DNA of 64,000 nucleotides from Bacteroidales bacterium (GTDB taxonomy: Bacteria; Bacteroidota; Bacteroidia; Bacteroidales; WCHB1-69). Below, piece after piece: positions 28,280-35,516 of this stretch (position 1 is the first letter of the stretch; every line of letters starts with the position of its first letter). The translations under genes and the position numbers were made by a program. Location of the stretch: positions 777-64,776 of the forward strand of contig JAZRYT010000179.1 in the NCBI GenBank assembly GCA_045600905.1, given 5' to 3'. The notes beneath the pieces were generated by a model, which saw only the letters and a list, made by a program, of their open reading frames with translations, was not told the origin of the DNA and searched no databases.

Positions 28280-30331
28280 CTACGGGACCAAAGTCACCGT
28301 TCCGGTTTTTTCATACAAAGATCTATCAGGCAATGTGTAAGTGATTTTATACACATAGACGTCAAAAGGAGCGCGTCTCCCCTTTATCGTACCATCCCAG
28401 CCCTCATTCGGATTGCGGGTCATAAAAATCATATCTCCCGTTCTGGCGTAAACGGCGAAGAAATAATTTTCCGATGACACAAAAGTATTCACAGGCATAA
28501 ACACATTGTTAATCGACAAACGTGGCGAAAAAGCATTGGGAACGTATGTGTTCGGCATCTGTTGTAAATCCACCACATTGGAATTGCTCATATCACTGAA
28601 TCCGTATTCATCTTCTATCGGTTGTGCCACCACGTAATACTTGAATTTGGAACCTCCTTCAAATAAGGAAGACACGTCATCGTGATAAGCATTATAGGCA
28701 TACGGCGTAACCTCGCCTGGAAGAACTATGAATTCGATATCGGATTCCTGCTTCCGCATCACGCGATAATGCTCCACATCGGCTGCCGATTGGCCGTAAT
28801 TGTTCCAATTGAGGACATTCTCTTGAGCGGAAGTGGCTTCTCCCTGTAAGAATACGCTATGCGCCACCTTGGAATAACCGCTGTTGGTATGGCAGCTGTT
28901 TTCTACAAAGGTCTGATAATAATAGATTCTTTTGCTAAAATCCGCCGTATTATCCTGAAATTCGTACTCGCTATCATTTTGATAGGGCAACGTCTGCAAT
29001 GTGGTGAAATCAGTACCGTTTTCACTGCGTTGCAAGGTGATGCTATTGAATGGCAATGTATCGCCACTGGTATGAACTACGATTTGAATATGGTCGTTGT
29101 CAATAACGGAAACAGAACGAATATGCGTAATATCGTCAGAGGCACTTGCCTCCATCGTGAAATCTATGCGGTTACTGGACGCGGTGATGGTTTCATCAGC
29201 ATTATGCACACGGACAAACACTCGGTAATCGGTTTCGTTTTCCAGATTTTCTATCGTAAAGGAATGCGTGTTGGCATTGACGGTGGCAATACTTTGGTAG
29301 GACGTGCCGTGATCCGTACTCAAAAAGATTTCAAAACTGCCGACTCCGCCCGTGAGATTCGGATAGGTGCTCCAATTGATGGAAGCGCTTTTCTCGCAAG
29401 CATTAAGAGTGCCTTGATACAGGTGCAGGCCACATTGTTCATCAGCAACCATCTGCGAGCTGTTCACACAGGAATCCAGCACGGCAATTCGATAGCATCT
29501 CTCTCCGCCATTCGGGTCAATCCAATAGGTGGCATTGTAAATAGTATCTATGCTAATCCATCCATCTCCTTGAAAATAAGCGATAAAGCCATACATCATA
29601 GGATCCGTCGCGTGAAATCCCAACGCCACACGGTTGTTCTCGTCAAAAGAAACGCTATCCAAAACAGGTATGTTGGGTTGTGTCCTATCCACCAACGTAA
29701 CCGTAGCAATGGAAGTACGGAAAATGCAGTTGTTGGTAGCCGTTTCACTAATCGGATAAGTATTGGTGATACCCACAGAATAGGAAATATCCCGATAGCA
29801 CACATCTGAAGTGTCGGTATAGTTATTTACCGTATTGGGGACTGTTGCAAAGGGCAAATTCGAGAACTGGTCCTCGAAATTGTATTTTTTATAGATGAAG
29901 TAGGAATCACCCCACGTATCATCCAAAGAACCAGAGGAAGGGGCATCCCAGGAAATCAAAGCGTATGCGCTATCTGCACTTGGTTCCACGTGAATGGCCG
30001 GCATTTGCAATGTATTGGAAGTCCACAAGTTACCATCCTCATCCTTTGCTTTGATATAGCAAGAATAGGTATTCGCCTCTGTGACGTGAATATCTCGTCC
30101 ACCATAATTGCAGAGCGTGTAACCACTACCGGCCACAAACGTCTCTACGTAAGCATTATTTACAAAAAACTGATATTCAACAAAATGAGTGCAATCGTCC
30201 GTATTACTCCACGTAACGTGCAATGTTGTTCCGTTATTTAACTGCAAACACTGCAGTGTGGGAGGATCGTATGCCCACACAACATTTGCCAGAGATGTGA
30301 AAAGCAAAAATGTATAGAGTATTTTTCTCAT
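28280..30331 (-). CDS. Multi-Fn3-like surface protein with a type B T9SS (gliding-motility-associated, CHU_C-type) C-terminal domain
   Basis: 683 aa with a signal peptide. The C-terminus VPNAFSPR...FAVYARTGDMIF...EGWDGTIKGRRAPFDVYVYKITY...TGTVTLVP matches the TIGR04131-type pattern. Last gene of the sigma-factor operon. Confidence 0.75.
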   Translation of the reverse strand: MRKILYTFLLFTSLANVVWAYDPPTLQCLQLNNGTTLHVTWSNTDDCTHFVEYQFFVNNAYVETFVAGSGYTLCNYGGRDIHVTEANTYSCYIKAKDEDGNLWTSNTLQMPAIHVEPSADSAYALISWDAPSSGSLDDTWGDSYFIYKKYNFEDQFSNLPFATVPNTVNNYTDTSDVCYRDISYSVGITNTYPISETATNNCIFRTSIATVTLVDRTQPNIPVLDSVSFDENNRVALGFHATDPMMYGFIAYFQGDGWISIDTIYNATYWIDPNGGERCYRIAVLDSCVNSSQMVADEQCGLHLYQGTLNACEKSASINWSTYPNLTGGVGSFEIFLSTDHGTSYQSIATVNANTHSFTIENLENETDYRVFVRVHNADETITASSNRIDFTMEASASDDITHIRSVSVIDNDHIQIVVHTSGDTLPFNSITLQRSENGTDFTTLQTLPYQNDSEYEFQDNTADFSKRIYYYQTFVENSCHTNSGYSKVAHSVFLQGEATSAQENVLNWNNYGQSAADVEHYRVMRKQESDIEFIVLPGEVTPYAYNAYHDDVSSLFEGGSKFKYYVVAQPIEDEYGFSDMSNSNVVDLQQMPNTYVPNAFSPRLSINNVFMPVNTFVSSENYFFAVYARTGDMIFMTRNPNEGWDGTIKGRRAPFDVYVYKITYTLPDRSLYEKTGTVTLVP

Positions 30332-30353
30332 ATAATTATCCTAATAAAAAAAA

Positions 30354-31634
30354 TCAACAATTGCCACCAACGATGATTTGGGTAAATTTATTGTGTGGAT
30401 AATATTTTTTTGCCAAAAATAAAATCTGTTCGGCCGTAATATCTCTAACTATCTGAATCATAGCATGGAATTCCGACTCATCCAATTGATGATGATGCCA
30501 ATAAGCCAATCGTTTGAGGTATGAGACCGAGTTTTCAACATCTCTAAGTAGCTCGCCGAGGATATAATTTCGCACAGAATCGAGTTCTTCTTGGGGTACG
30601 AGTTCAAGTCTCAAGCGCTCTAATTCTTCAAAACAAGCCTCCATAGAAGCCTTAGTATTTTGAATGTTCACATCGCTATTGATAATGAAGATGGACTGGT
30701 TTCCGAAATAGACAGAGCCGGAAGAGATGCCGTAGGTATATCCGTTTTTCTCGCGGAGATTCTGCATAAGGCGTGACCCGAAATAGCCTCCTGTAATGGT
30801 GGAAAGAATGGAAAATTCGCGTCGTTCGGCATCAGAATAGGCCATCATCGGCTGGCACAACGTGATGGATGACTGCACACTGTTCTCCATCTTTTCAAAA
30901 ACCAAAGGTGTGGTATCTGAAGGCAACGGGAGATTTTCAATATTGGCAATAGCAACGCCATTGGGAATCTGCTCGAAAATCTCACAAACAAAGGATTCCA
31001 GCTCGGCATCAAAATTTCCAGTGGCAAAAAGACTGATGTTTTCCGCGCAGAAGGTCCTTTGATGAAAAGCCATCATCTGGGGAATGGTGACGGCCTGCAG
31101 GTTTTCCTTCGTCGAGAACTGTCCGGCCGTCTTGTCGTCACCGAACATCGCATGCAGCATCAATTGCGTGTTGCGCACATCGGTTTTTTTGGAATTGTAT
31201 TCCAAATCCTTTATCTTCAAATTTTTATAAACGGACAAATTCGTCTCGCGATAAGCAGGATGAGACATAAAGTCCATAATCACGGGCAGGATTTGCTTCA
31301 CATTCTTTTTCGGGACAGAAATACTCACCACCGTCTTATCCAGCGATTCGGAAACGGTATAATGTGTGCCGTAGAAATCCAGCAAATCCGCTATCTCATT
31401 GGAAGAATGGTCTTTCGAACTTTCTTTCAACAGCGCGTACGTGAATAAGGCGATATGTTTCTGATTCTCGTGCAAAATGCCGACATTCAATTGAATCAGG
31501 AAATGTATCAGATCCAAATTCTCATTATCAATAATGAAAAAAGGAATCTGGTTTAGAAGGGTCAGCTGGCGAGGCTTTGCCAACTGAATTTCAGAAATCG
31601 GATGTTGATCAGGGGTGATAGAACGATTTAGCAT
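30354..31634 (-). CDS. M16 (insulinase/pitrilysin) family homolog lacking the HxxEH zinc motif, so probably non-catalytic
   Basis: Two-lobed M16-like layout. The expected HxxEH position reads IALFTYALLKES. ATG at 31634; the track start at 31676 is GTG. Confidence 0.6.
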   Translation of the reverse strand: MLNRSITPDQHPISEIQLAKPRQLTLLNQIPFFIIDNENLDLIHFLIQLNVGILHENQKHIALFTYALLKESSKDHSSNEIADLLDFYGTHYTVSESLDKTVVSISVPKKNVKQILPVIMDFMSHPAYRETNLSVYKNLKIKDLEYNSKKTDVRNTQLMLHAMFGDDKTAGQFSTKENLQAVTIPQMMAFHQRTFCAENISLFATGNFDAELESFVCEIFEQIPNGVAIANIENLPLPSDTTPLVFEKMENSVQSSITLCQPMMAYSDAERREFSILSTITGGYFGSRLMQNLREKNGYTYGISSGSVYFGNQSIFIINSDVNIQNTKASMEACFEELERLRLELVPQEELDSVRNYILGELLRDVENSVSYLKRLAYWHHHQLDESEFHAMIQIVRDITAEQILFLAKKYYPHNKFTQIIVGGNC

Positions 31635-31650
31635 AATAAGACAGCAAAAA

Positions 31651-32508
31651 TTATCGAATGAGGGTGACTTGGCCACGACGAGTGGATTGTTTTCCCTCCG
31701 GATTAGTGAATTTCACAATATAATTATAGACCTCACTGGGTAAATCTCGGCCGCGGAAAGAGCCATCCCAACCAAGCCTCATATCCTTATTGAGAAACAC
31801 CAGTTCACCTTTTCTCGAATAGATAGCGATTTCGAATGAGAGCGGCGTGAAATCAGCTTCAACTTTAAACAGGTCATTGACACCATCTCCATTGGGAGTA
31901 AAGGCATTAGGGATAAAAAGTTGGTAATTATTGGTTGGTGTTTCCGGTTCCTCAGATGAATGGGCATTATCATCTTGACTTTTGACAGAGGAAACAAAGA
32001 CCGATTTTGCCGGTTTGCTAACTGAAGAAGGAACTGAAGTCACATCTGGTGCGCGTTTTTCAACCTTGGCAGCTATCGGAGCGGACGGCGCAGAAGGTTT
32101 GGAAGCAGCGGGGGCAACCGCCGGTACAATATCCTCAAGTACAGGCTGAGACGGGAAATTTGTCGTCGTCGGTACTGCCTCTTTTTGCATCGGCAGTGAT
32201 TCAGAAGTACGAACTTGAGTCACTTCTTCTGATTTTGCTTGGGCCACAGGTTCCGTTTGACGAACCGTAACCTCTTGAGGAACAACAGTTTTATCCGGCT
32301 CTTCTACAGACTTCTTAGGAGAAGAAGCAAGCAGAACCGTCGCCACCACCACAGCCACTACTACAGCTGGAACTACACCCAACAGGCATATTCGCTGCCA
32401 GCGTTTGCGCCGATTAAAACGCACGAGCTGCGCGTCGTTCACAATCGTTTCCCACGCAGATTCCTCTACTGGAAGCTTATAATTTTTAACAGAGTCTTTT
32501 AATTCCAT
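31651..32508 (-). CDS. Single-pass membrane protein (anti-sigma-like position) with a Pro/Ser/Val-rich linker and a type B T9SS C-terminal domain
   Basis: ATG at 32508, 22 nt after the sigma gene stop. About 40 aa N-terminal, then TM ICLLGVVPAVVVAVVVATVLLA, a low-complexity linker of about 170 aa, and the C-terminus IPNAFTPNGDGVNDLF...GWDGSFRGRDLPSEVYNYIV...RRGQVTLIR. Confidence 0.7.
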   Translation of the reverse strand: MELKDSVKNYKLPVEESAWETIVNDAQLVRFNRRKRWQRICLLGVVPAVVVAVVVATVLLASSPKKSVEEPDKTVVPQEVTVRQTEPVAQAKSEEVTQVRTSESLPMQKEAVPTTTNFPSQPVLEDIVPAVAPAASKPSAPSAPIAAKVEKRAPDVTSVPSSVSKPAKSVFVSSVKSQDDNAHSSEEPETPTNNYQLFIPNAFTPNGDGVNDLFKVEADFTPLSFEIAIYSRKGELVFLNKDMRLGWDGSFRGRDLPSEVYNYIVKFTNPEGKQSTRRGQVTLIR

Positions 32509-32530
32509 ATTCTTATTACGTATTCTGGTT

Positions 32531-33088
32531 TCAAATATTAAATTCTTCGTCATTAAGGTATTCCCTGATTTTTTTCTGCAGTGCCAATTTGGCACGATGG
32601 ACAATTACTCTAACGTTACTTGTAGCAACGCCCATCATGTCCGATATCTGTTTTTGCGAATAACCGTCCAACACAAACATATTAAACATTATGCGGGAAG
32701 TGTGGGGAAGTGTGTTGACAAACTCCATCAATTTCTCAAAAGAAAGCACTTCCGGGAAAAAAGGTTTCGTAATATCCCTTATCGACTCTCTGTCTTCCAA
32801 TGTAACCATAGGATAACGCACCTTTCTTCTATAATAATCTATCGACTTATTGACTGAAATCCTATAAATCCAACCACCAAGAGAGTCGATGTGATCAAAT
32901 TCGTTGAAATGAGTAAGAATAAAGACAAAAATGTCATGAAAAAGGTCTTTTTCTTCCTCAGAGTTCAGGGCATATCGATGGCACACACCTTGGACAATGG
33001 GACCATATTCAAGATATAACTGCTTCTGGTATTGACTTTTACCAGACAAACAGCCTTTAACGATTATTTTTTCTTCCTCAGTCAACAT
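32531..33088 (-). CDS. ECF-type RNA polymerase sigma-70 family factor
   Basis: Region 2-like FHDIFVFILTHFNEFD and region 4 HTH SQKQISDMMGVATSNVRVIVHRAKLALQKKI. ATG at 33088; the track start at 33139 is TTG. Confidence 0.8.
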   Translation of the reverse strand: MLTEEEKIIVKGCLSGKSQYQKQLYLEYGPIVQGVCHRYALNSEEEKDLFHDIFVFILTHFNEFDHIDSLGGWIYRISVNKSIDYYRRKVRYPMVTLEDRESIRDITKPFFPEVLSFEKLMEFVNTLPHTSRIMFNMFVLDGYSQKQISDMMGVATSNVRVIVHRAKLALQKKIREYLNDEEFNI

Positions 33089-33181
33089 ATAATTCAACAA
33101 TCTGCTTAACGAAAAATACCCCCAAAACGTTACACTCAAAATTCATTTTTTTTCGTTTTTTTGCAGAAATTTTTTTCACGG

Positions 33182-33790
33182 ATGAAACAGCTGCAAAAAT
33201 CGTATTTTTTAGAGAATGACGTGTTAGCCATAACTCGCAATCTATTAGGCAAATACGTTTTCACATGCAAAGACGGGCAGATTTCAGGCGGCATCATTTC
33301 AGAAGTTGAGGCCTACAACGGAATTGACGACCGGGCCTCACACGCTTTCGGAGGAAGAAGAACGAACCGCAATGAAATGATGTACCACGAAGGAGGGGTT
33401 GTCTATATGTATCTTTGCTACGGGATGCACGCGATGTTGAATTTCGTAACCAACCAGGAAGGCATTCCTGACGCCGTGCTCATTCGCGGCATCATCCCCA
33501 CTCACGGAGAAGAACTGATGTTACAACGAACCGGCAAGACGCACATTTCTCCCGACATTTCCAATGGACCGGGGAAAGTCAGCAAAGCCCTAGGACTTAC
33601 TGTATCAGACAACGGGCTTTCTCTCCTTTCAGAAACCATCTGGTTGGAAGACAGAGGTCTGCACATCCCGGACAATCAAATCGACATCACCCCCCGCATC
33701 GGTGTTGATTATGCCGGAGAAGATGCCCGGCTGCCCTATCGATTTGTCTTAAACAAAAATTTCGAAATTAAAAATTCCTTATATGTCTAG
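33182..33790 (+). CDS. DNA-3-methyladenine glycosylase (MPG/AAG family)
   Basis: LLGKYVF...GGIISEVEAYNGIDDRASHAFGGRRT.RNEMMY..GG..YMYLCYGMH matches the PF02245-type pattern. ATG at 33182. Confidence 0.8.
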   Translation: MKQLQKSYFLENDVLAITRNLLGKYVFTCKDGQISGGIISEVEAYNGIDDRASHAFGGRRTNRNEMMYHEGGVVYMYLCYGMHAMLNFVTNQEGIPDAVLIRGIIPTHGEELMLQRTGKTHISPDISNGPGKVSKALGLTVSDNGLSLLSETIWLEDRGLHIPDNQIDITPRIGVDYAGEDARLPYRFVLNKNFEIKNSLYV

Positions 33791-34850: not shown

Positions 34851-35516
34851 ATGAAGTTATATATCGTACCCACACCCATCGGCAATTTGGAGGACATCAC
34901 GCTGCGCGCGCTCAACGTGTTAAAGTCCGCAGATTTCATTCTCTGCGAGGACACCCGCACCACGAAGAACCTGCTGAAGCACTACGAAATCGACAAGCGC
35001 TGCGTTGCCTACCATATTTTCAACGAGCACGAGCAGTTGAACCATTTCATCAGCCAAATCAAAGCCAGCGACAACGTGGCATTGGTCAGCGATGCCGGTA
35101 CACCAGGCATTTCAGACCCAGGGTTCCTTCTAATCCGCGAATGCATTGCCCAAGATATCGAAGTGGAATGCCTTCCCGGCGCGACGGCCTTTGTTCCCGC
35201 CATAGTGCAATCCGGGCTGCCCTGCAGCAGCTTCTATTTTTACGGATTTCTCCCTCACAAAAAAGGGAAAGAATCCCTGCTGAAACGCGTTGCGGAAATG
35301 GAGGAGACCGTCATCTTCTACGAATCGCCACACCGTTTAATCAAATCTTTGGAAAAGATGGCCGAGATTTTGGGAGCAGACCGGATAATCTCCATATCAA
35401 AAGAGCTGACAAAGATTTACGCCCACACGTTCCGAGGAACGATAGCCGAAGCCATCGAATATTTCGGGCAAAAGGAAGTGAAGGGTGAATTTGTTATGAT
35501 TATTTCACCAAAATAA
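34851..35516 (+). CDS. rsmI: 16S rRNA (cytidine1402-2'-O)-methyltransferase
   Basis: LYIVPTPIGNLEDITLRALNVLKSADFILCEDTRTTKNLL...SDAGTPGISDPG is the RsmI signature. Confidence 0.85.
   Translation: MKLYIVPTPIGNLEDITLRALNVLKSADFILCEDTRTTKNLLKHYEIDKRCVAYHIFNEHEQLNHFISQIKASDNVALVSDAGTPGISDPGFLLIRECIAQDIEVECLPGATAFVPAIVQSGLPCSSFYFYGFLPHKKGKESLLKRVAEMEETVIFYESPHRLIKSLEKMAEILGADRIISISKELTKIYAHTFRGTIAEAIEYFGQKEVKGEFVMIISPK

Follow-up and report, generated by a model that had tools for sequence, protein, structure and literature searches.

Several described systems connect extracytoplasmic function (ECF) sigma factors to events in the cell envelope. The anti-sigma factors RseA, RsiW and RsiV are single-pass membrane proteins with a cytoplasmic N-terminus, and in the FecR/FecA/FecI system an inner-membrane anti-sigma factor reaches across the periplasm to an outer-membrane component. 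To our knowledge, the means by which Bacteroidota perceive the status of their type IX secretion system (T9SS) and outer membrane are largely unknown. In the best-studied route, the C-terminal domain (CTD) protein PorA of Porphyromonas gingivalis influences PorXY–SigP signaling, and whatever connects the cell surface to the inner membrane is still missing from this route (PMC7712824). Other T9SS proteins carry type B CTDs, which bind PorP-like proteins (PMC9143113, PMC12618676). Functional type B signals have been reported to comprise 150–235 amino acids (aa) and to depend on a cognate PorP/SprF shuttle, whose gene is often a neighbor (PMC12618676). Here, a 285-residue protein with a type B CTD was analyzed, which is encoded directly downstream of an ECF sigma factor gene in a Bacteroidales bacterium (GTDB WCHB1-69). 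The analyzed stretch of DNA, referred to as the window, comprises 64,000 nucleotides (nt) at positions 777–64,776 of contig JAZRYT010000179.1 (assembly GCA_045600905.1). Judging from its sequence and gene context, the protein is probably an anti-sigma factor or, failing that, a partner dedicated to the sigma factor.

Four-part architecture of the CTD protein and its relatives

The CTD protein consists of a 39-residue N-terminus, a 22-residue helix, a linker and a full-length type B CTD (Table 1). This four-part layout, proposed by a first-pass annotation of the DNA, was borne out by profile searches, hydropathy analysis and AlphaFold2 (AF2) modeling. The open reading frame (ORF) is not a chance ORF because the same architecture was found in at least 85 clusters. 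Full-length relatives were retrieved by homology search down to ∼25% identity, and the hosts of the family are gut and rumen Bacteroidales. In the databases, the members are named just 'gliding motility-associated C-terminal domain-containing protein [Bacteroidales bacterium]', and no description of the family was found in Pfam, NCBIfam or the literature that was searched. The mean pairwise identity is 32% in the N-terminus, 14% in the linker and 43% in the CTD, which is the best-conserved part of the family proteins.

The N-terminus contains the family motif (D/N)(Y/F)xxxPxxxxW(E)xI, with the core (Y/F)xxxPxxxxWxxI represented by residues Y10, W19 and I22 of the target protein. The W19 residue is invariant in 36 family sequences. 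In the AF2 model, residues 3–7, 16–23 and 26–61 form α-helices, the last of which is one continuous helix. A profile of the first 66 residues matched 173 cluster representatives in a search of 1.84 billion proteins, and CHU_C was found in 81 of the 141 representatives that were scanned. The motif appears to be undescribed in Pfam, NCBIfam and the literature that was searched. Matches of the N-terminus to FixH, PMP1_2 and CU044_5270 were dismissed as transmembrane (TM) or low-complexity noise.

The motif also occurs in larger Bacteroidota proteins, in which 2–7 tandem copies with a period of 25–32 aa precede a single TM helix. The C-termini of these relatives are either an OMP_b-brl_2 β-barrel or PKD plus CHU_C. 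An ECF sigma factor gene is located directly upstream of the relatives in 4 of 4 loci checked, which encode Emticicia/Spirosomataceae 620-aa repeat proteins and OMP_b-brl_2 proteins. In the four proteins from these loci (530–630 aa; Table 1), two to seven tandem copies of F-x-x-(Y/F)-E-x-x-P-x4-W-x2-I are followed by one TM helix, an extended low-complexity linker and an outer-membrane β-barrel at the C-terminus. Several motif-bearing relatives match the NCBIfam model NF052375 ('anti-sigma factor') over the motif and TM helix with 15–36 bits, below the cut-off of 100. In a third architecture, represented by P0140 and P0181, four to five N-terminal motif copies and a TM helix precede a pair of PKD domains and a CHU_C type B CTD. 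The presence of a cytoplasmic N-terminus and an outer-membrane barrel in one polypeptide is a paradox in its own right.

The target protein has a single stretch of strong hydrophobicity, residues 40–61 (ICLLGVVPAVVVAVVVATVLLA), for which the Kyte-Doolittle 19-residue mean is 2.9; residues 1–39 are hydrophilic. Among 85 members, the uncharged hydrophobic segment has a median length of 22 aa (range, 20–25 aa), and no AXA-type or other conserved cleavage site was found after the helix. Lys and Arg residues number 5.5 before the helix versus 1.9 after it, and this bias is observed in 78 of the 85 members. These features predict a protein that crosses the inner membrane once, with a cytoplasmic N-terminus and a periplasmic CTD, and heuristic criteria indicate that it lacks a cleavable Sec signal peptide. 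The inner-membrane-anchored appearance noted in the first-pass annotation is supported by the positive-inside bias and the helix length. The N-terminus is read as a cytoplasmic module rather than a signal peptide because its motif is conserved and is found in tandem in sigma-linked membrane proteins.

Alternatively, the protein could be ordinary T9SS cargo whose signal peptide is cleaved but exceptionally long, and its place beside the sigma gene would reflect only transcription by that sigma factor. Initiation at the in-frame GTG codon 30 would generate a textbook signal peptide consisting of RFNRRKRWQR, a hydrophobic core and LLA↓SS (the arrow marks the cleavage point), in line with the Sec signal peptides stated for all T9SS effectors (PMC12618676). 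The GTG start was rejected because residues 1–29, including the invariant Trp, are conserved and recur as tandem cytoplasmic repeats in relatives. Moreover, the hydrophobic segment is 20–25 aa long throughout the 85 members, the mature product would be a disordered linker without a functional passenger, and the pairing with a sigma gene extends to 15 of 15 family loci and to the 4 loci of other architectures. Such a cargo is therefore highly improbable. In addition, the T9SS cargo proteins of the window carry short classical signal peptides (e.g. MKKTLCLMLVLLLSVFTLRVSA↓QG). The first-pass annotation had seen no signal-peptide cleavage features in the target protein, and the conserved 39-residue N-terminal region, the 20–25-aa helix and the lack of a conserved cleavage motif agree that it is not an ordinary cargo with a short cleaved signal peptide.

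Pairing with an ECF sigma factor gene in a candidate autoregulated operon

The stop codon of the sigma gene lies 22 nt ahead of the ATG codon of the target gene, as expected from the first-pass annotation, which had placed the target directly after an ECF sigma gene. The start codon of the sigma gene is backed by an alignment with a related locus (L006). The 185-residue sigma protein scores 74 bits against TIGR02937 (cut-off, 43), and its relatives in the PDB include SigW, SigH and RpoE.

An ECF sigma gene is found directly upstream, on the same strand, in all 15 assessable family loci, which comprise the window, 5 loci of diverged members and 9 metagenome loci. In the loci of the diverged members, the sigma gene is retained and the remaining neighbors vary. 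The metagenome loci originate from a set of ten that were picked by N-terminal peptide patterns alone; all ten encode the target architecture, and the sigma gene is present in each of the nine that have upstream sequence. The sigma gene and its partner are separated by a 3–35-nt gap or overlap by 4 nt, and the identity of the paired partners to the target goes as low as 25%. The 4-nt overlap between the sigma stop and the partner start is observed in seven of the metagenome loci (L094–L096 and L098–L101) and indicates translational coupling. As a control, 80 loci of generic type B CTD proteins were taken from among the matches listed from a contig scan with the family alignment; the listed matches were all generic proteins of this type, and the CTD drove the pattern. 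Neither an upstream sigma gene nor the N-terminal motif was found in any of the 80 loci, a control that is only partial because many ORFs extended past the fetched DNA.

The sigma factors of the motif-bearing partners align end to end with 26–46% identity. Those from the window and from L001–L004, L088, L090, L091 and L094 were compared with NF058625, which represents the PG0214/GFO_1088 family of ECF sigma factors. All of them match this model with 57–100 bits, always below the cut-off of 130, and in most cases it ranks first or close to first among the specific models. The paired sigma factors may form a sister group to the P. gingivalis PG0214/GFO_1088 sigma family.

The first-pass annotation had derived an anti-sigma role from gene position only. 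The reading now rests on more than position, given the pairing in 15 of 15 loci, the occurrence of the motif in other sigma-linked proteins and the sub-threshold NF052375 matches, and it has good associative support. An alternative role for a membrane protein encoded next to a sigma gene is that of a structural tether, an inner-membrane anchor that is fixed to the outer membrane via its CTD, serves envelope architecture and is merely co-expressed under the control of the sigma factor. The conserved linker length and the outer-membrane-directed C-termini in two architectures fit a tether. However, strict one-to-one pairing with frequent translational coupling is a signature of cognate regulators, and the cytoplasmic motif is conserved beyond the needs of a mere anchor. 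A tether is the least probable of the readings that were considered.

A candidate ECF-type promoter is located upstream of the sigma gene (Table 1). Twelve related loci share the bipartite motif TG(C/T)AAC-N13-14-(A/T)TTCGT upstream of the sigma gene, with a spacer that varies. The candidate promoter is the sole strict match in 205 kb scanned and the sole match in the window. Autoregulation from such promoters is typical of sigma/anti-sigma operons. A loose match to the motif at positions 35008–34984, inside a gene on the opposite strand, was dismissed, and a scan of the locus for sigma-70 promoters and terminators yielded nothing above background. A conserved block upstream of the promoter (TAAAAAATACGATTTTTGCAGC) was likewise rejected as a regulatory element since it represents the coding N-terminus (MKQLQKSYF) of a divergently oriented DNA glycosylase. 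At positions 33182–33211 of the plus strand, this region encodes the start of a DNA-3-methyladenine glycosylase, for which the ATG codon at 33182, rather than the TTG codon at 33161, is probably the true start.

Behind the promoter, four genes on the minus strand (28280–33134), in the order sigma factor, target, M16-like protein and fn3 protein, are spaced by 22, 16 and 22 nt and are possibly co-transcribed. The array is kept in L006, L092–L094 and L096–L101 and is absent in distant family members. Its conservation is only suggestive of an operon because the overall synteny is also conserved in those relatives. The M16-like protein lacks an HxxEH motif and a signal peptide. The 683-residue fn3 protein has a classical signal peptide (MRKILYTFLLFTSLANVVWA↓YD) and a divergent type B CTD, which is 32% identical to that of the target and also lacks the Trp residue of the RWG turn described below.

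A disordered spacer and a cargo-like CTD proposed to face the outer membrane

The segment between the helix and the CTD is disordered in the AF2 model, with a predicted local distance difference test (pLDDT) score of ∼50. The first-pass annotation had described a low-complexity linker of about 170 aa; its richness in P, S, V and A was confirmed, with E as a further frequent residue, but the length was not, as the spacer spans residues 62–197 (about 136 aa). The length of the spacer is conserved and its sequence is not, with a median of 135 aa and an interquartile range of 128–144 aa in 85 members. A second class of spacers measures 181–208 aa and includes that of P0005, whose extra stretch ahead of the CTD aligns with no other member. 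By our own estimate, 135 residues would exceed 40 nm when fully extended, enough to span the periplasm. No passenger domain was detected between the helix and the CTD by AF2 modeling and alignment, only the disordered non-conserved spacer.

The type B CTD assigned by the first-pass annotation was verified by scores above both the Pfam and NCBIfam cut-offs. The domain matches CHU_C (PF13585) with an E value of 6e-17 and 61.9 bits (cut-off, 27) and TIGR04131 with 60.4 bits (cut-off, 35). The TIGR04131 match covers model positions 3–85 of 85 and residues 199–285 at the extreme C-terminus of the protein. In the AF2 model, the CTD folds into a β-sandwich with pLDDT scores above 94. Foldseek neighbors of this structure include the T9SS CTDs of NucA (8glk_D, from the T9SS complex 8glk) and PorU. 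The per-column conservation of the family CTDs correlates with that of 80 cargo CTDs (Pearson r = 0.77), and both groups have in common the consensus blocks FIPNAFTPNGDGxND...IYxRxG...GWDG...YxY...KGxxxLIR.

Taken as a whole, the observations are best explained by a membrane-bound sigma partner, most likely an anti-sigma factor, whose CTD contacts the outer membrane or the T9SS, an explanation to which we give an even chance. The 39-aa cytoplasmic module with the motif (Y/F)xxxPxxxxWxxI would hold the sigma factor, and the 22-aa helix would serve as the inner-membrane anchor. With its ∼135 aa of disordered spacer, the protein would bridge the periplasm, and its type B CTD would dock on an outer-membrane or T9SS partner, for example the translocon or a PorP/SprF-like shuttle. 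Whether the anti-sigma factor persists or is lost to regulated proteolysis would depend on this contact, in which the CTD might be docked or free, subjected to pulling, or displaced by competing cargo. Its removal would free the sigma factor to drive its own operon from the AAC-N16/17-CGT promoter, and in this lineage the operon probably adds the M16-like protein and the 683-aa type B CTD cargo. Possible variants are docking without export, export-coupled destruction as for FlgM or for RsiV with signal peptidase, and rivalry between the target and the co-encoded cargo over a common shuttle. The first-pass annotation had suggested a tethered sensor of this kind; the sigma-partner part of that reading is strengthened, and the coupling of the target to the T9SS is still speculative. 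A design that reaches the outer membrane fits the relatives, since these fuse a β-barrel to the same N-terminal module. With two different outer-membrane-directed C-termini on one cytoplasmic module, reaching the outer membrane appears to be the design goal.

A broader proposal is that these proteins constitute an undescribed Bacteroidota class of trans-envelope ECF signaling proteins, in which the WxxI module holds the sigma factor and the far end, a CTD or a barrel, is located at the outer membrane. The CTD version would be a cargo mimic that reads T9SS occupancy or activity and tunes transcription, including that of the co-encoded type B cargo. This generalization is tentative and appears doubtful at present.

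Several observations weigh against a membrane sigma partner that contacts the outer membrane or the T9SS. The N-terminus has no meaningful match in Pfam or NCBIfam at E values up to 10 and no relative in the PDB, and recognized anti-sigma domains (the class I anti-sigma domain (ASD)/zf-HC2, RskA, FecR and others) were not detected in the Pfam and NCBIfam searches. Up to seven motif copies in relatives are odd for a domain that binds a sigma factor at a 1:1 ratio. The promoter-motif search of 205 kb returned the operon's own promoter alone and provided no regulon link to T9SS genes. In the RWG turn of the CTD, 69 of 80 generic CTDs (86%) have the Trp residue but only 1 of 86 family members does; the others contain S, R, N, G, T or K at this position (K233 in the target). 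The standard machinery may therefore recognize the family CTD differently or not at all. In addition, the folded part of the CTD measures just ∼90 aa, compared with the 150–235 aa reported for functional signals (PMC12618676). In five loci, one of which (L006) shares synteny with the window, no PorP/SprF-like shuttle gene was found among the Pfam-annotated neighbors within 6–8 kb.

The Trp loss, the short folded part and the lack of a linked shuttle gene also bear on a different reading, in which the protein is an anti-sigma factor with a co-opted β-sandwich that serves as a sensor or protein-binding domain for an envelope ligand and is no longer linked to the T9SS. The fold itself adds to these points, as the CTD also resembles many unrelated structures and is a generic Ig-like sandwich. 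However, the other TIGR04131 blocks are all kept and the conservation profile follows that of cargo, which would be unexpected once the domain was freed from T9SS constraint. The scores are also well above the curated cut-offs, and relatives bear another outer-membrane-directed domain on the same module, which suggests that membrane as the destination. Co-option is therefore considered unlikely. Because the correlation and the blocks are retained and the RWG Trp is lost, the CTD is better described as a specialized variant under cargo-like constraint, and the Trp site may separate docking from translocation.

The CTD might alternatively be exported rather than docked. In such a secretion checkpoint, similar to FlgM or RsiV, cleavage near the membrane (e.g. 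at LLA↓SS) would allow the spacer and CTD to be exported, the anti-sigma factor would be destroyed, and the sigma factor would report a working T9SS. Site-1 cleavage of RsiV by signal peptidase and the export of FlgM are established precedents. The CTD is full-length and cargo-like, the helix ends in Ala followed by small residues in several members, and export would merely remove the protein because it has no passenger domain. On the other hand, the residues after the helix are not conserved, and the RWG Trp is lost. A checkpoint of this kind is distinctly unlikely, and the sigma partner that contacts the outer membrane or the T9SS remains the preferred reading.

The window also provides evidence that the host possesses T9SS cargo. 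Three type A proteins and one type B protein are encoded, and judging from the three large type A CTD proteins (Table 1), the organism evidently uses a T9SS.

Table 1. Features of the window and of the loci of tandem-motif relatives
Feature	Position	Strand	Basis or remark
Target ORF, 285 aa	31651-32508	minus	ATG at 32508; stop 31651-31653
Predicted cytoplasmic N-terminal module, aa 1-39	32392..32508	minus	Conserved motif, then basic residues RFNRRKRWQR
Single TM helix, aa 40-61, read as an uncleaved signal anchor	32326..32391	minus	Hydrophobicity, K/R bias, AF2
Disordered spacer, predicted periplasmic, aa 62-197	31918..32325	minus	pLDDT ∼50; rich in S, V, P, A, E, K, T
T9SS type B CTD, aa 198-285	31654..31917	minus	CHU_C, TIGR04131, AF2 β-sandwich
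RWG-turn equivalent, R232-K233-G234	31807-31815	minus	Codons of the target
ECF sigma factor, 185 aa	32531..33088	minus	Sigma70_r2, Sigma70_r4_2 and TIGR02937 above cut-off
Candidate autoregulatory ECF-type promoter	33109..33134	minus	TGTAAC-N-TTCGT (AAC ... 17 nt ... CGT)
M16-like protein, 426 aa	30354..31634	minus	Peptidase_M16_C and Peptidase_M16; 16 nt downstream of target
fn3 protein, 683 aa	28280..30331	minus	fn3 and CHU_C (26.7 bits); 22 nt past M16-like gene
Type A CTD protein, 2902 aa	14082-22790	minus	
Type A CTD protein, 1049 aa	41883-45032	minus	AmpD-like amidase region
Type A CTD protein, at least 2294 aa	57062-63946	minus	No signal peptide at listed GTG start; probably runs past window end
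P0327	L088 4001-5875		Tandem-motif relative, ECF sigma upstream
P0317	L089 4001-5866		Tandem-motif relative, ECF sigma upstream
P0200	L090 2993-4882		OMP_b-brl_2 above threshold; weak likeness to PorG and PorT
P0389	L091 3001-4605		OMP_b-brl_2 above threshold

Significance and comparison with known systems

No description of a membrane-anchored sigma partner with a T9SS CTD was found in literature searches or in three papers on T9SS cargo and signaling (PMC12618676, PMC9143113 and PMC7712824). A literature search on PG0215/PGN_0320 as a possible characterized relative returned nothing relevant. If the proposed role is correct, sigma partners that carry a T9SS sorting domain on a periplasm-spanning spacer would supply the connection that the PorA–PorXY–SigP route lacks, and the target would be the first anti-sigma factor known in the phylum with a secretion-system sorting signal. 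The motif flags many unannotated proteins, named 'hypothetical' or 'gliding motility-associated C-terminal domain', as likely ECF regulators. Moreover, the Trp-less CTD may help to tell docking determinants from translocation determinants in type B signals. The target is a concrete and testable candidate for a protein through which transcription responds to the status of the T9SS or the outer membrane.

The theme of an ECF sigma factor with an anti-sigma factor is known, and what is new is the apparently undescribed motif in the cytoplasmic part, together with a secretion-system sorting domain at the end that faces outward. The target resembles the membrane anti-sigma factors RseA, RsiW and RsiV and the class II factor CnrY in that its gene directly follows the ECF sigma gene, an arrangement that is often translationally coupled. 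Like RseA, RsiW and RsiV, it is predicted to be a single-pass protein with a cytoplasmic N-terminus and belongs to an operon with a candidate autoregulated ECF-type promoter, and its short cytoplasmic part is reminiscent of CnrY-type factors. The target differs from all of these in lacking a detectable ASD, zf-HC2 or other known anti-sigma domain. Its putative sigma-binding unit is instead a new motif, which is found in tandem in relatives, and its extracytoplasmic part is a sorting domain.

Compared with type B cargo (SprB/SprF and PG1035/PorP; PMC9143113 and PMC12618676), the target has the same full-length CTD, fold and sequence blocks and occurs in a host with other cargo. In contrast to such cargo, it contains a putative cytoplasmic module and an uncleaved-looking anchor in place of a Sec signal peptide, has no passenger and no linked shuttle, and belongs to a family of which 85 of 86 members have lost the RWG Trp. 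FlgM, which acts on sigma-28, offers a conceptual likeness, as an anti-sigma factor that bears the export signal of a secretion machine whose status sets sigma activity. FlgM is soluble and exported whole by the flagellar type III system, whereas the target would be anchored, with only its periplasmic part open to the T9SS.

The PorA–PorXY–SigP pathway resembles the proposed system in that a CTD protein feeds T9SS or cell-surface information to an ECF sigma factor. PorA is a secreted surface protein with a type A CTD and acts via a two-component system (PMC7712824), whereas the target itself would be the membrane-anchored sigma partner. In FecR/FecA/FecI, an inner-membrane anti-sigma factor likewise relays envelope events to an ECF sigma factor from an outer-membrane component. 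Unlike FecR, the target has neither a FecR domain nor a linked TonB-dependent transducer, and its presumed contact with the outer membrane would be made by a type B CTD at the end of a disordered spacer.

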